The notes under the pieces were generated by a model. That model saw only the letters and a program-made list of their open reading frames with translations, made no database searches and was not told the origin of the DNA. DNA of 61,553 nt from Candidatus Parcubacteria bacterium (GTDB lineage Bacteria > Patescibacteriota > Minisyncoccia > Phycocordibacterales > Phycocordibacteraceae): contig JAKFXG010000002.1 of assembly GCA_021731495.1 (NCBI GenBank), positions 1 to 61,553 on the forward strand, in the 5' to 3' direction. Shown one piece after another: positions 5,130 through 28,567 of this stretch. The position numbers were made by a program, and so were the translations under genes. Positions within the stretch are counted from its first letter, which is position 1. Every line of letters starts with the position of its first letter.

Positions 5130-5270
5130 TCCGCAAAGTCGGACTGGCTAGACCCATTTAGGCCGATATGGCTGGCACATTCTGTCAGAAACAAAGTCGG
5201 GGTGCGGAGAATCGGACTCCGTCATCTTAAATTTCTTATGGAAATTTCCACAGAAGTCTCCCAGACTTCT

Positions 5271-5416
5271 GGTCACAACATTTTCTAAACCAACTATTTA
5301 GTCACACTGTCGGGGTGCGGAGAATCGGACTCCGTCATCTTGCTCCCAAAGCAAGCGTACTACCGGTATACGACACCCCGACACTGCGACCAAAAATCTA
5401 AGAAAATGTTGTGACC
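5271..5416. mobile_element. 146-bp unit bounded by perfect 16-bp inverted repeats that carries the intact tRNA-Pro (MITE-like, tentative)
   Basis: GGTCACAACATTTTCT at 5271-5286 is the exact reverse complement of 5401-5416. Confidence 0.4.
5310..5380 (-). tRNA. tRNA-Pro (anticodon UGG), no encoded CCA, T-loop TCCGATT
   Basis: Acceptor CGGGGTG/CACCCCG, anticodon arm CTTGC-TTTGGGA-GCAAG, T arm CGGAG-TCCGATT-CTCCG. Confidence 0.85.
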
Positions 5417-5431
5417 CCAAAGCAAGCGTAC

Positions 5432-5499
5432 TACTGCCAAGCGAGCCGAGCAACAAGTGAATTCCAATTCATTTGTTCGAGGCGAGCGAAGGGAGAAAG
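5432..5499. repeat. about 68-nt hairpin repeat, copy A (TACTGCCAAGCGAG...GGGAGAAAG), inside the D-loop of the broken tRNA-Pro
   Basis: Its first 14 nt are identical to 28501-28514. The central hairpin differs in sequence but still pairs, and the 3' block GAGCG..GG.AGAAAG is shared. Confidence 0.5.
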
Positions 5500-6599: not shown

Positions 6600-6832
6600 T
6601 TCAGGCGACATGATACCATGCCACCCTTTCATTTTTCCAGTGCCCCAACCAGGATCGCGATTACGCTTATCGAAACTTACAGTTTCAGTACACTTCATTC
6701 AGCAGAATGACTCTTGGAGTACGCGGATTTTCTCTTCGCGCAAACGCTCGATAAAATGCTCGCAAAGTCTTCGATTCCTGGCCGCACGTCCCCCAGACGT
6801 GCTTCGGGGCACATCCTCGCTATGTTCGTATG

Positions 6833-6904
6833 TGCCCCGACCAGGAATCGAACCCAGAATTCGACGTCCGAAGCGTCGCGTGATATCCGTTTCACCATCG
6901 GGGC
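6833..6904 (-). tRNA. tRNA-Arg (anticodon UCG), no encoded CCA
   Basis: GCCCCGA/TCGGGGC acceptor, D arm GTGA-AACGGATA-TCAC, anticodon arm CGACG-CTTCGGA-CGTCG. Confidence 0.85.
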
Positions 6905-6961
6905 TAAAACGACACCTTGTGTCGTTCGCCCGAACATTTCACCTTGCAAAATGTTTTAGGG
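6904..6961 (+). repeat. double-hairpin palindromic element, copy e (intergenic, abuts the tRNA-Arg 5' end)
   Basis: CTAAAAC-[GACAC/GTGTC hairpin]-GTTCGCCCGA-[ACATTT/AAATGT hairpin]-TTTAGGG. Confidence 0.65.
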
Positions 6962-7021
6962 CGTACCTGCATACTACTACTAAGCGAGCCGAGACACGAG
7001 CAATTATGCTACGATTCTCAC

Positions 7022-19461: not shown

Positions 19462-20313
19462 ATGATGCGCGCCAAAAAATCGCTTGGGCTAAAACCATCA
19501 GTGCATCTGATGGTTCGCCCGACGCGTCGCCGGGCGGCGCGTTTAGGGCAAAACTTTCTCATGCACGCACGTATTGCGGAGCGCATAGCGCTCGTTGCAC
19601 AGCTTGCACCGGATGCAACGGTATTTGAAATCGGTCCGGGAACGGGCATGCTCACGCGAGAACTCCTAAAGCGTGCGGGCAAAGTAATTGCCCTTGAAGC
19701 GGATTACGAACTTTTCGAAAAGTTACGGACTGAATTTTCGTCTGAAATTGCGGACAATCGTCTCGAACTCATGCACGGCGACATACGCACGTTTGATATT
19801 TCGACGCTCCCAAAAGGGTACGTGCTCGTCGCGAACATTCCGTACTATCTCACGGGCGAAATATTCCGCATGTTCCTCGAATCAGAAAATCAGCCGAGTG
19901 CGATGACACTGCTCGTGCAAAAGGAAGTTGCCGAGCGCATCGCTCGCTCCAAAAAAGAAAGTATTCTCTCCCTTTCGGTAAAGGTGTATGGCACACCGAA
20001 GCGCGAATTTGTGGTACCTCGCGGAGCGTTCAGGCCGGCACCAAATGTGGATTCCGCGGTGCTGACCGTCCGTAATATTTCACGAAATAATTTCGCATCC
20101 CGTAGCGAAGAAGAACGATTTTTCGCGCTGATACATGCAGGATTTGCGCATAAACGGAAGTTCGTGCGCACAAACCTTATTGATGCTGGATTGATTCCGG
20201 CTAAAACCGCCGGAGGCGATTCGCCCGACGCGCCATTGAATGGCGCGTTTAGGGAGAAAGCGCGTGCCGAGGATGTCCCACTCTCCACATGGCTTATTCT
20301 TTGTCGTCTCTAA
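19462..20313 (+). CDS. rsmA: 16S rRNA (adenine1518/1519-N6)-dimethyltransferase
   Basis: LGQNFL, EIGPGTGMLT and NIPYY motifs. Carries two repeat-element insertions. Confidence 0.9.
   Translation: MMRAKKSLGLKPSVHLMVRPTRRRAARLGQNFLMHARIAERIALVAQLAPDATVFEIGPGTGMLTRELLKRAGKVIALEADYELFEKLRTEFSSEIADNRLELMHGDIRTFDISTLPKGYVLVANIPYYLTGEIFRMFLESENQPSAMTLLVQKEVAERIARSKKESILSLSVKVYGTPKREFVVPRGAFRPAPNVDSAVLTVRNISRNNFASRSEEERFFALIHAGFAHKRKFVRTNLIDAGLIPAKTAGGDSPDAPLNGAFREKARAEDVPLSTWLILCRL
19489..19548 (+). repeat. double-hairpin palindromic element, copy a (60 nt, in frame in the rsmA N-terminus)
   Basis: CTAAAAC-[CATCAG/CTGATG]-GTTCGCCCGA-[CGCGTCGC/GCGGCGCG]-TTTAGGG. Deleting it joins KSLG to QNFL. Confidence 0.75.
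20201..20254 (+). repeat. double-hairpin palindromic element, copy b (54 nt, in frame in the rsmA C-terminus)
   Basis: CTAAAAC-[CGCC/GGCG]-ATTCGCCCGA-[CGCGCCAT/ATGGCGCG]-TTTAGGG. Confidence 0.7.
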
Positions 20314-23140: not shown

Positions 23141-25510
23141 ATGCGCCGCTTTCTTACCGCACCACTCATCGCTCTCGCGCTTCTTATAAGTGCGACGGGC
23201 GCGTACGCGTCTGTCGCGCTTGCGCAAACTGCCGCCGATGCCGCTACTAACGCCGCTATTGATTCTGCCCAAGCCCAACAAGCCGATGCCGCCGCCCGAG
23301 CCGCCATGGAAGCAGGTGAGACCCAAGATAATGCCGAATGGGCCGCCAGGACCATCGGTCCGGAACCCAACAAGACCGTGACCGAACCGAAAGAGACCAA
23401 AGACGAGGCCTTTGGATATGTCATGACCAAGATCATGAGCCTGTTTGCGTGGCTTCTTGGCGTTGCGATAATTACGCTCGACTATGCAGTGTATTACACC
23501 GTAGTCACCATGGGTGACTTCGTGAAGGATCTTTCAGCCGTTGGTATCACCTGGCGCATATTGCGAGACATCGGGAACATTATGCTGATATTCGGCTTCC
23601 TTGCCGTCGGCATCACCACCATCCTGAACGTGGATTGGTATGGAGGGGGGAAGAAGATGCTGCCGATGCTTCTCATCTCTGCTGTCTTCCTGAATTTCTC
23701 GCTCTTCATATCCGAAGCGGTTATCGATACGGGCAATCTCTTCGCGACGCAGTTCTACACGCAGATCAAGGGGGGCAGTATTCCATCAAGCCCCTCAGTG
23801 TCTCAGGAGGCGATTGAAACCGAGGGCATCTCGAACAAGATCATGGGACAATTGGGACTTCAGACCATCTACACCGCAGGTAGGGTTAACACAGAGGTCT
23901 TCAAAGCCGGAAATACATGGCTCATCGGCTTTATGGGTATTTTGCTTTTCATGACCGCCGCATTCGTGATGTTCTCTCTCGCATTCATACTCATCGCGCG
24001 TTTCGTCATACTTATCTTCCTCATTATTCTCGCACCGATCGGTTTTGCGGGCCTCGCGGTTCCTAAACTGTCGAGCACAGCGAGTAAGTGGTGGAGCACT
24101 CTTTTTGAGCAGACCATCACCGCACCGGTCTTGTTTTTGATGCTCTATATTGCGCTTGCGATCATTACGGATGTATCGTTTCTCAGCGGAATCTGCTCCT
24201 CTTCTTCCGGAACGACCTGTTCGAAAGACTGGACAGGATTTGTGAATAACAACGACTTGTCCGGTTTCTCGAGCATGCTGCTCTCCTTCCTTGTGGCAAT
24301 GGGGCTCCTTCTTGCCGTCACCGTTTTCGCGAAAAAATTATCCGCCTTCGGTGCTGGCATGGCAACAAAAGTTGCCGGTGCACTTTCGTTTGGTGCAGTT
24401 TCGCTTGGGGGTAGAGCAACACTTGGTATGACCGGTAACTTATTGGCCAACAAGCGCATGCAAAGTTGGGCTCGGAGCAGTAGTGGTAAGTGGGGAAGTC
24501 AGTATCTGGCGAGAGCTGGAGTGTTCGCGGGTAAGGGACTCCGGAGCTCAACGTATGATGTGCGCAATATGCCGGGCGCAACTGCTGGTCTGGGGGCTCT
24601 TGGTATTGATGCTGGAAAGGGGGCAACCATTACAGCGAAACAAGCACATGACGCTCAGTACGGTGTGAAGCCGATCAAAGAATACTTCAAACATTCGGCA
24701 GAAGAACGCGAACAAGCCGGGCGCGAAATTGATTTCAAAGATGCGCAGGCAGACTTTGCGGCAGGTAGAATTACTCGAGCTGCTTACGACTCAATCGTTG
24801 CACCTGTACTTTCGAAAATGTCGACAAAGCAGCTTGAAGAACTTGGTGGCATTAAGAAGGGTGTGGATGCTCTCGTGGATAATCTTTCACCACAGCAGTT
24901 TGAATCACTTATGAAGAGCGATAAGTTGAGTGAAGCGGAAAAGGACAAGATAAAGGAAGCACGGTATAGAACTCTTTCTAACGCTGTTGCCACTGGCAAT
25001 ATTCCGGATATCAAGAAGGCAATTAACTCCTTTAGTAAGGGGGAACTTGAAGCAATGCCTGCCGACTTGCTCACTCATCAGAATCCTGCAACGGGCCAAA
25101 GACTTATTCTTGAACAACTTTCGGACAAACAAAGAGAAACCATAATTGAAAGTAAGGAGCGTACGGCTGCAGAGAAAGATTTGGTACGCAAATCCAGCCC
25201 AGGTGGAAGTGTCGAGGACATATTTAATACTGCCGGTGGCGGTGCGGCAGGCGCGGCTGCGGTGGCGTGGAGTCCGAATTTCGCGCGTCTTACTGTTCCG
25301 CAACTTGCAAAACTCCATAAAGACATTTTGCTACAACCAGCAGTCGCAGAAAAACTTACAACTGCAACTCTTATAGAGCTCCAAGAGCAAAAGAAACTCA
25401 CGCCCGCAGAGATGATTGCCATCGGCAACCATATCCGTGGGTCGGTAATAGCAAATCAAAAAACCAAAGATTATGTAACTACAGGCCCTGGGGCTGCTCT
25501 ATGGGCATAA
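23141..25510 (+). CDS. polytopic membrane protein with a large soluble C-terminal domain (tentatively TrbL/VirB6-like)
   Basis: Signal peptide, about 7-8 hydrophobic segments between residues about 95 and 440, then about 330 hydrophilic residues. The family assignment rests on architecture only. Confidence 0.7.
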   Translation: MRRFLTAPLIALALLISATGAYASVALAQTAADAATNAAIDSAQAQQADAAARAAMEAGETQDNAEWAARTIGPEPNKTVTEPKETKDEAFGYVMTKIMSLFAWLLGVAIITLDYAVYYTVVTMGDFVKDLSAVGITWRILRDIGNIMLIFGFLAVGITTILNVDWYGGGKKMLPMLLISAVFLNFSLFISEAVIDTGNLFATQFYTQIKGGSIPSSPSVSQEAIETEGISNKIMGQLGLQTIYTAGRVNTEVFKAGNTWLIGFMGILLFMTAAFVMFSLAFILIARFVILIFLIILAPIGFAGLAVPKLSSTASKWWSTLFEQTITAPVLFLMLYIALAIITDVSFLSGICSSSSGTTCSKDWTGFVNNNDLSGFSSMLLSFLVAMGLLLAVTVFAKKLSAFGAGMATKVAGALSFGAVSLGGRATLGMTGNLLANKRMQSWARSSSGKWGSQYLARAGVFAGKGLRSSTYDVRNMPGATAGLGALGIDAGKGATITAKQAHDAQYGVKPIKEYFKHSAEEREQAGREIDFKDAQADFAAGRITRAAYDSIVAPVLSKMSTKQLEELGGIKKGVDALVDNLSPQQFESLMKSDKLSEAEKDKIKEARYRTLSNAVATGNIPDIKKAINSFSKGELEAMPADLLTHQNPATGQRLILEQLSDKQRETIIESKERTAAEKDLVRKSSPGGSVEDIFNTAGGGAAGAAAVAWSPNFARLTVPQLAKLHKDILLQPAVAEKLTTATLIELQEQKKLTPAEMIAIGNHIRGSVIANQKTKDYVTTGPGAALWA

Positions 25511-28458: not shown

Positions 28459-28500
28459 CCGCAGTTTCCGCTATTCTCTACCTAACGCCACGGCGCCTTT

Positions 28501-28567
28501 TACTGCCAAGCGAGTGAGTGAAAAAGAAATTCCCATTTCGTTTTTCCGAACGAGCGCTGGTAGAAAG
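28501..28567. repeat. about 67-nt hairpin repeat, copy C (TACTGCCAAGCGAG...GGTAGAAAG), in the fusA 5' region
   Basis: Shares 14 identical 5' nt and a similar 3' block with 5432-5499. The central hairpin is of different sequence. Confidence 0.5.

Follow-up and report, generated by a model that had tools for sequence, protein, structure and literature searches.

A structured segment lies directly before the gene of tRNA-Arg(UCG) in the 666-kb genome of a Candidatus Parcubacteria bacterium (referred to below as G000, with its relatives numbered G0xx and collected loci numbered Lxxx), and the locus raises the question of whether this segment is an inherited leader of the tRNA or a piece of mobile DNA that has entered the gene. 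The window, i.e. the whole stretch of 61,553 nt that was analysed (contig JAKFXG010000002.1 of assembly GCA_021731495.1), contains both the tRNA gene and the segment on its minus strand; coordinates refer to the window unless another contig is named. The comparison with related genomes revealed a 58-bp insertion, comprising a 56-bp element and a repeated CC, at positions 2-3 of tRNA-Arg(UCG), and established its exact boundaries. The element is a solo, non-autonomous copy of a double-hairpin mobile DNA of 45-70 bp, which is widespread in the candidate phyla radiation (CPR, Patescibacteria). The complete reading, according to which such an element would have chosen its site by base pairing, inserted into the tRNA gene, rebuilt that gene and become a leader removed by RNase P, is regarded as probable. 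The features of the locus are as follows.

6832-6904, minus strand: tRNA-Arg, anticodon UCG (ARAGORN, as TCG; Rfam RF00005 at 6833-6904, 56 bits).
6904-6959, minus strand: element core, 56 nt, reading on the tRNA strand CTAAAAC, hairpin 1, TCGGGCGAAC, hairpin 2, GTTTTAG (covariance model R1, 55.9 bits, E = 1e-12).
6934-6952, minus strand: hairpin 1 (ACAUUUUGC AAG GUGAAAUGU, closing pair C-G), with a CCC/GGG extension over a UAA internal loop (folds).
6928-6931, minus strand: central GGGC, its middle GG complementary to the flanking CC, the proposed 'guide' (centre/flank covariation).
6911-6923, minus strand: hairpin 2 (GACAC AAG GUGUC), with an AAC/GUU extension, then UUA, then G1 of the tRNA (folds).
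6960-6961, minus strand: target dinucleotide CC in its upstream copy, which is GG on the plus strand (comparison of filled and empty sites).
6902-6903, minus strand: downstream copy of the target dinucleotide CC, identical with tRNA positions 2-3 (comparison of filled and empty sites).
6962, minus strand: ancestral G1 of the tRNA, displaced, likely the first or second base of the primary transcript (comparison with relatives).
6971-6976, minus strand: -10-like hexamer TAGTAT, located 8 nt upstream of the ancestral G1 and assigned to the tRNA-Arg promoter (motif conserved in relatives).

The plus strand contains, in order, GGGG (6900-6903), CTAAAAC (6904-6910), GTTTTAG (6953-6959) and GG (6960-6961), and on the tRNA strand the locus reads GCC-CTAAAAC-[ACAUUUUGCAAGGUGAAAUGU]-UCGGGCGAAC-[GACACAAGGUGUC]-GUUUUAG-CCCCGAUGG. 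The initial annotation of the window placed the beginning of the CTAAAAC end at the very nucleotide complementary to G1 of tRNA-Arg, and ARAGORN, Rfam and the reading of the sequence all bear this out: C6904 doubles as the first base of CTAAAAC and the complement of G1, which is the final G of the element's GTTTTAG. The extent of 6904-6961 proposed at the same time is right for the filled span and has been refined, the element proper covering 6904-6959 and the last two positions being the second target dinucleotide. CTAAAAC and GTTTTAG at the two ends make up a perfect inverted repeat of 7 bp, bordered on either side by a 2-bp repeat (CC at this locus). The predicted two-hairpin structure upstream of the tRNA is likewise supported by the folds, with -26.6 kcal/mol and z = -2.9 for the element alone and z = -5.5 for the element together with the tRNA, where the leader hairpins and the acceptor stem remain separate and are joined by UUA.

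The tRNA-cca region was searched in 60 genomes of the same genus, and 110 nt upstream of each tRNA-Arg were read. The element was absent before tRNA-Arg in all 20 related genomes having that tRNA. Three of them (G031, G029 and G023) keep the upstream block ctcgtgtctcggctcgcttggtagTACTATgcaggtac, which abuts GCCCCGATGG directly; the relatives thus read ...gcaggtac|GCCCCGATGG where G000 reads ...gcaggtacGCC[element]CCCCGATGG. Written out by its parts, the G000 site is ...gcaggtac-G-CC-[56 nt]-CC-CCGATGG, a gain of 58 bp over the empty sites. The tRNA-Arg of G064 is 100% identical to that of G000 and lacks the element. Since relatives with the same promoter block have an empty site, the segment is an insertion and not an inherited leader; because the element has G as its last base and lies between two copies of the target CC, the GCC at the 5' end of the tRNA is rebuilt and the gene is intact. 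The segment is structured and is placed exactly where a leader would be expected, which is what an ordinary, vertically inherited tRNA-Arg leader or cis-regulatory RNA would look like. That explanation is nonetheless extremely improbable, given the empty sites in the 20 relatives, the promoter block shared with three of them, the presence of the element within protein-coding genes and at other RNA genes, and the lack of an Rfam family match: a search of 6880-7010 returned no family even at E <= 10, and a scan of the window at the gathering threshold returned tRNAs only. The initial annotation had named a leader shared by relatives, with no other members of the family, as the sign of an ordinary conserved leader; the relatives have empty sites and the family has many members. 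At locus L022 (G005), a displaced 5' fragment of tRNA-Arg, GCCCCGAT, follows the same promoter block and is itself followed by an unrelated segment of about 85 nt and an intact tRNA; it seems that a different element has used the tRNA-Arg start there.

According to the initial annotation, every copy of the element has GG or GGG just outside the CTAAAAC end and terminates in AGGG, which might reflect a GG(G) target-site duplication or an insertion preference. The tabulation of flanks holds for 13 of the 14 G000 copies, which have the dinucleotide CC/GG on both sides, and fails for the C7 copy, with CT on one side; the pattern 'GG(G) / AGGG' is this dinucleotide together with the element's own terminal C or G. 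The suggested duplication or preference fits the filled and empty pairs at other loci, where an empty site X-CC-Y corresponds to a filled site X-CC-[CTAAA(A)C...GTTTTAG]-CC-Y, as in the filled tRNA-Glu copy of G029 and its empty counterpart AGGGCCGTA in G000. The tRNA-Glu case ruled out the first reading of the tRNA-Arg site as a 4-nt duplication of GCCC.

Variant centres have matching flanks. Three copies in relatives, with central GGA, had TC..TC flanks, which prompted the prediction that the flank follows the centre, and this prediction was made before metagenome contigs were scanned with the pattern CTAAAC..TCGG[not G]CGAAC..GTTTTAG, the flanks being left free. The scan yielded 50 copies with centre GGC and flanks GC..GC, seven with centre GGC and flanks GC..GT, 18 with centre GGA and flanks TC..TC, and two with centre GGT and flanks AC..AC, these copies being partly related by descent, so chi-square values computed from them are overstated. 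Among the 68 copies that passed the hairpin filter, the complementary flank was found on the left in 60, on the right in 64 and on both sides in 59. The element's two central bases and the dinucleotide at its flanks are Watson-Crick complements (GGG/CC, GGC/GC, GGA/TC and GGT/AC), and the rule is nearly categorical. Equivalently, G-GN'-C at the centre has G-NC-C, at the outer junction, as its reverse complement. As one copy of the dinucleotide is native DNA (positions 2-3 of the tRNA at this locus), the rule concerns the choice of target and not just the sequence of the element. If an enzyme can be found, the family would represent a very small DNA insertion system guided by base pairing, in which a single base change should direct the element to another target.

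The window contains five occurrences of the pattern CCCTAAA..CGGGCGAA, and 100 shuffled versions of it contained none. The five copies share CCCTAAA(A)C, a variable hairpin, (G)TCGGGCGAAC, another variable hairpin and GTTTTAGCC. A covariance model built from 13 copies detected 14 copies in the G000 genome, including the tRNA-Arg copy with the E-value listed above, from one to eight copies in each of nine out of 36 genomes of the genus, and the element in 33 of 150 other genomes of the order. A scan of species-representative genomes with a strict pattern gave at least 119 loci; among the matches listed, nearly all were labelled as Patescibacteria, the lineages including Saccharibacteria, Paceibacterota, Nomura-, Kaiser-, Vogel- and Zambryskibacteria, Gracilibacteria and others. 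Two contigs with the element, L085 and L086, are labelled as Micrarchaeota and Elusimicrobia; the short L085 carries a bacterial-type tRNA-Thr beside the element, and these labels may be binning errors. A looser pattern applied to viral contigs gave 60 matches, none of them with the hairpins; they are chance matches and doubled as a negative control.

The alignment of 47 copies showed that 97% of the cells pair and that 15 of the 18 pairs are altered on both sides, with a covariation score of 0.71 as compared to 0.19 for shuffled and about 0.1 for slid alignments; fitting the alignment to the model gives the structure an advantage, yet the margin is large. Helices 1 and 2 are paired in 96-98% of cases, two-sided changes affect all nine pairs of helix 2, and the AAC/GUU base of hairpin 2 covaries in the family to ACC/GGU and AGC/GCU. 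The element consists of two inverted modules, C-TAAA(A)C-stem-G(T)TC-G, the right half being the same module on the other strand, and the covariance model also matches the opposite strand of some copies. Three other assignments of the element were rejected: the cores RYYYAAC/GTTRRRY of an integron attC site do not fit, and copies lie within genes; the core motifs of hammerhead and other small ribozymes are absent; and an RNA-level intervening sequence is at odds with the frame rule, which shows that copies are translated.

This rule concerns copies within genes. Twelve of the 14 G000 copies lie in long open reading frames (ORFs), including those of UvrD/PcrA (sense), RsmA (twice, antisense) and a LeuRS-like ORF. 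Insert length, taken as the element plus 2, was determined for 236 copies. A long ORF spans 121 of these, and in 114 of the 121 the length was a multiple of three; the other copies were distributed among the three phases as 38:37:40. The exceptions in G000 are the copies at tRNA-Arg (58 nt) and at tmRNA (64 nt), as expected at non-coding sites. Copies inside genes keep the reading frame and are translated. If the family goes unrecognised, such inserts of 15-20 residues, as well as leaders like that of tRNA-Arg, will be misread in CPR genomes by gene callers and in protein alignments. At the C-terminal RsmA site (20196-20254 of the window as compared with L034 of G014 and L035 of G034), the orientation of the element is opposite between species and the sites are 1-2 nt apart (CCGGAG and CCCGAA), which suggests that a single permissive spot received independent insertions.

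The tRNA-Arg copy belongs to a group of copies at the ends of stable-RNA genes. Among about 270 copies in the collected loci, 19 directly adjoin tRNA or tmRNA genes on the 5' side, at a distance of 0 or -1, the genes concerned being those of tmRNA (nine, or 15 after manual checks), tRNA-Glu (three), tRNA-Thr (two), and tRNA-Ile, -Ala, -Ser, -Phe, -Lys and -Arg (one each). Such copies make up approximately one sixth of the non-coding ones, far above the expectation for random CC sites. Their target dinucleotide is always at positions +1/+2 or +2/+3 of the RNA, and several have a -10-like hexamer 5-12 nt outside the element. Three further copies (L095, L108 and L109) are in the CC of a CCA encoded at the 3' end of tRNA-Thr or tRNA-Cys, with the remaining CCA downstream of the element. 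The excess at 5' ends may be due to targeting, possibly by way of the single-stranded DNA of the open promoter complex, or may reflect mere tolerance.

Several known systems resemble the element. Rickettsia palindromic elements (RPEs) are also small palindromic repeats of a reduced genome that survive in frame in essential genes, adding a short peptide loop, and occur beside RNA genes. In-frame translated insertion, which characterises RPEs, is seen in the present family (the 114 of 121 copies mentioned above, with the UvrD and RsmA copies as examples), but size, host and sequence differ. RPEs are about 100-150 bp long and confined to Rickettsia; the element measures 45-70 bp, has another consensus, consists of two short hairpins with freely varying stems and is found across CPR hosts, often exactly at position +1 of tRNA and tmRNA. 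It also shows the complementarity of centre and flank, and no rule linking an internal base to the flanks is known for RPEs. Repetitive extragenic palindromes (REPs), with their BIME and REPIN doublets and RAYT transposases, share with the element a hairpin unit with a conserved foot, the inverted doublet, a patchy copy number and the presence of RAYT-like genes in the genome (PMC3333891, PMC3337134, PMC3733652, PMC8266576). Two inverted units, as required of such doublets, are indeed present. The GTAG/CGTC foot tag of the 20-40-nt REP palindrome is not: the feet of the element are CTAAA(A)C and G(T)TCG, GTAG being seen in a few variants only. A RAYT gene is expected to be flanked by the same repeat, and the genes in G000 are flanked by another one, TACAAGGTnnnACCTTGTA. 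Besides, about half of the element copies lie inside genes, and the stems are not conserved within a genome.

The insertion sequences of the IS200/IS605 family, such as IS608, have hairpins near both ends and read their target by pairing with a short guide beside the hairpin foot (PMC3201880, PMC3597680, PMC5934647). In IS608, changing the guide changes the target, and two tetranucleotide guides operate with no duplication (PMC3201880, PMC3597680, PMC5934647). In contrast, the single central GG-N-C of the element is able to pair at either junction, and the target is specified at two bases only. An internal guide, the hallmark of this family, is apparent in 59 of 68 copies under a rule predicted beforehand; a parental tnpA with the same ends was not found. 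Integrative elements and homing-type ORFs that insert into tRNA and tmRNA genes are similar in entering an RNA gene and regenerating its displaced end. Known islands rely on tyrosine or serine integrases, enter at the 3' half and bring along tens of tRNA bases, whereas here three bases of the 5' end are rebuilt by a gene-free element of 56 bp. The terminal repeats and fixed duplication of a classical MITE (miniature inverted-repeat transposable element) are matched by the 7-bp inverted repeat and the 2-bp repeat at either border; an autonomous partner sharing these ends was found neither in a scan of the collected loci for distant single modules, which were mostly doublet halves, nor in viral contigs, DDE transposases not having been searched systematically. 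The element behaves like RPEs, REPIN/BIME doublets and IS608 but departs from each in a defining feature, owing to its size and host, the absence of the GTAG tag and RAYT flanks, and the absence of a parental tnpA, respectively. It is best called a new variant among small palindromic mobile elements. A search of the literature found no paper tying CPR/Patescibacteria to REP-, RPE- or MITE-type repeats.

Two models of mobilisation are rated about equally likely, and both are tentative. Single-strand movement by an HUH (Y1) enzyme of the IS200/IS605 or REP/RAYT type is one possibility; the hairpins would be recognised by a tyrosine transposase, which would cut at the place of pairing between flank and central guide, and the left part of the CC..CC repeat would then be the target, its right part the 3' end of the element itself. 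The two hairpins with conserved feet point in this direction, as do the doublet of inverted modules, like that of BIMEs and REPINs (PMC3333891, PMC3337134), and the centre-to-flank rule, which follows the same principle as the pairing of guide and cleavage site in IS608 (PMC3201880, PMC5934647). G000 encodes two RAYT-like Y1 proteins with HUH and Tyr motifs, and a Y1 match was obtained in nine of nine element-bearing and 16 of 27 element-free genomes among G001-G036. However, both RAYT-like genes of G000 are flanked by the different hairpin repeat, which has 16 copies, no Y1 gene was found bracketed by the ends of the element, and the hairpin sequences vary freely among copies, whereas TnpA and RAYT recognise specific hairpins. 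The REP tag GTAG or CGTC is absent as well (PMC3733652). The two RAYT-like genes are located at C2:39044-39950 and C19:1028-1747, each bracketed by TACAAGGTnnnACCTTGTA, and together with this repeat look like a separate REP/RAYT system. In the relatives, the ORFs of eight loci with classical TnpA genes of the IS200 type were listed, and none was tied to the element, the ends not being compared. The other possible mobiliser is a small stand-alone GIY-YIG nuclease, the master unit being a GIY-YIG gene plus the double hairpin at the 5' end of tmRNA; a staggered cut with a 2-nt overhang would give the 2-bp repeat, and solo copies would be miniatures derived from it and mobilised in trans. Homing endonucleases of the GIY-YIG class, I-TevI for instance, produce 2-nt 3' overhangs. 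On contig C3, outside the window, an intact ORF of 88 aa (23759-24022) is situated between smpB and the pair of element (23680-23741) and tmRNA (23274-23679), and the same trio of gene, element and tmRNA occurs in at least 15 loci from distant CPR lineages. The 29 scorable tmRNA loci of the genus include three with the element (G000, G017 and G030), all with the gene, and 26 with neither. Orthologues were found in five of 150 genomes of the order, all five among the 33 element carriers, and the genomes with the gene have 14, 18, 8, 7, 5, 3, 2 and 1 copies of the element versus a mean of about 2.3 in those without it.

The GIY-YIG link holds for every tmRNA copy examined, but not for the tRNA-Arg copy, near which no GIY-YIG gene lies, or for ten other listed copies abutting tRNAs. 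Close orthologues are also lacking in 28 of the 33 element-bearing genomes of the order, as well as in G024, G029 and G034, which have six to eight copies each. The protein is a bare catalytic domain of the UPF0213/YhbQ type devoid of a DNA-binding part, homing endonucleases spread via repair at homologous sites rather than by transposition to new ones, and the adjacency could mean that gene and element both target the same tmRNA start. Most tmRNA loci of the genus comprise smpB, TGGTATCAT, about 10 nt and tmRNA, and include neither the gene nor the element; the same is true of G031 and G014, which are closer to G000 by tmRNA identity. A third candidate, a serine recombinase of the IS607 type, would use the palindromic junction GTTTTAG-NC-CTAAAAC as its crossover and a target with the same central dinucleotide. 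Such an enzyme would account for the perfect 7-bp inverted repeat around the dinucleotide and for the same dinucleotide flanking every copy on both sides and changing with the subfamily. It is nevertheless a distinctly unlikely candidate: only large serine recombinases (450-600 aa) were found, which do not track the element and are missing from three of nine element-bearing genomes, no small serine transposase was seen beside any copy, and the internal covariation of centre and flank would be left unexplained. A gene for a large serine recombinase is located just beyond the tmRNA, at C3:21795-22244. Elsewhere in the genome, a second small GIY-YIG ORF (C18:1825-2079) extends as far as the 5' end of tRNA-Gly(CCC) at 2080 and terminates inside it, with no double-hairpin element between them.

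What the insertion means for the tRNA depends on the position of the promoter. In at least 12 of the 20 relatives, a -10-like motif of the (C)GTACTAT type ends 8-12 nt before G1 of tRNA-Arg; in the block shared with three relatives, TACTAT is followed by 8 nt and G1, and its counterpart in G000 is TAGTAT, 8 nt and the displaced G. Other tRNA genes of G000 have a TGnTAnnnT motif ending 9-15 nt before +1. Given these spacings, the stable-RNA precursors of G000 should have leaders of a few bases only. TAGTAT at 6971-6976, upstream of the element, is the sole promoter-like sequence conserved with relatives, and no -10-like hexamer was found in the tRNA-proximal half of the element; for these two reasons, the whole element is expected to be transcribed as a leader of about 58 nt, which should then be removed by RNase P. 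Genes for both the RNase P RNA (132 bits) and the RNase P protein are encoded. The proposal of the initial annotation that the element is the immediate 5' leader, to be cut off by RNase P, is thus consistent with the promoter placement and the RNase P genes.

It is likely that the following course of events took place. The central G-G of GGGC would have paired with a target CC and so determined the insertion site. The insertion has left the original G1 58 nt upstream, beside the old promoter, which formerly would have initiated at the mature 5' end of the tRNA or no more than a few bases from it. This promoter would now yield a precursor beginning with the two-hairpin element (the first 58 nt or so) and continuing through the UUA linker to G1, from which RNase P would remove the two-hairpin leader. 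The tRNA gene stays usable only because its start is restored by the element's final base together with the repeated target. In CPR bacteria, promoters lie nearly on top of stable-RNA genes, and such insertions alter the workload of RNase P.

The gene in question is the single TCG gene among 44 tRNA genes of G000, and its product is the only tRNA able to read CGA, which makes up 11.5% of Arg codons in 154 long ORFs. As the sole reader of a codon in regular use, tRNA-Arg(UCG) must work. A structured leader of 58 nt is unusual in comparison with the spacing of the -10-like motifs of the other tRNAs, and it could be supposed that the insertion has silenced or crippled the gene, or that transcription starts anew inside the element so that the full element is not a leader. 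Both variants appear unlikely in view of the need for this tRNA, the mature sequence, unchanged and identical to that of G064, the lack of a -10-like hexamer in the proximal half of the element and the 18 other copies that are likewise tolerated before tRNA and tmRNA genes.

The reading of the locus as a mobile double-hairpin element inserted into tRNA-Arg(UCG) and turned into a removable leader has to be weighed against several points. Solo copies, the one at tRNA-Arg among them, have not been linked to any enzyme. The filled and empty pairs would fit both a 2-bp duplication and the entry, 3' of CC, of an element having CC as its own end. The copies used for the covariation statistics are partly related by descent, so that p-values are overstated. 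A generic sigma-70 scan called no promoter of tRNA-Arg, and TAGTAT has no recognisable -35 partner. The transcription start, the leader and its removal are inferred from sequence only. The tRNA-Arg copy adds to the picture of the family a base-exact insertion in a single-copy gene of a CGA-reading tRNA, the restoration of G1 by the element, a test each of the flank rule and of the GIY-YIG link, and an almost leaderless gene that would have been made dependent on RNase P. A bolder synthesis would see here an undescribed miniature mobile DNA that selects a 2-bp target via its own central bases, is driven by the bare 88-residue GIY-YIG nuclease at tmRNA and lands preferentially in the melted DNA at the transcription starts of almost leaderless tRNA and tmRNA genes, converting them into sources of RNase P-dependent precursors; as a whole, this synthesis is doubtful.

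Some other observations concern the tRNA genes and their surroundings. ARAGORN assigned five Arg tRNAs to G000, with the anticodons TCT, CCT, TCG, CCG and GCG; the last of these, tRNA-Arg(GCG) at C28:700-772, is present instead of the ACG (inosine) species usual in bacteria. A 32-nt repeat, GCNTACTACTNNNAAGCGAGCCGAG..., occurs at 5426-5457 (upstream of tRNA-Pro), 6969-7000 (upstream of tRNA-Arg) and 28495-28526, and on the minus strand it includes the -10-like motif taken as the tRNA promoter. Partial duplicates of tRNA-Pro(TGG) at 5191-5228 and 5415-5437 flank the intact gene at 5309-5380.

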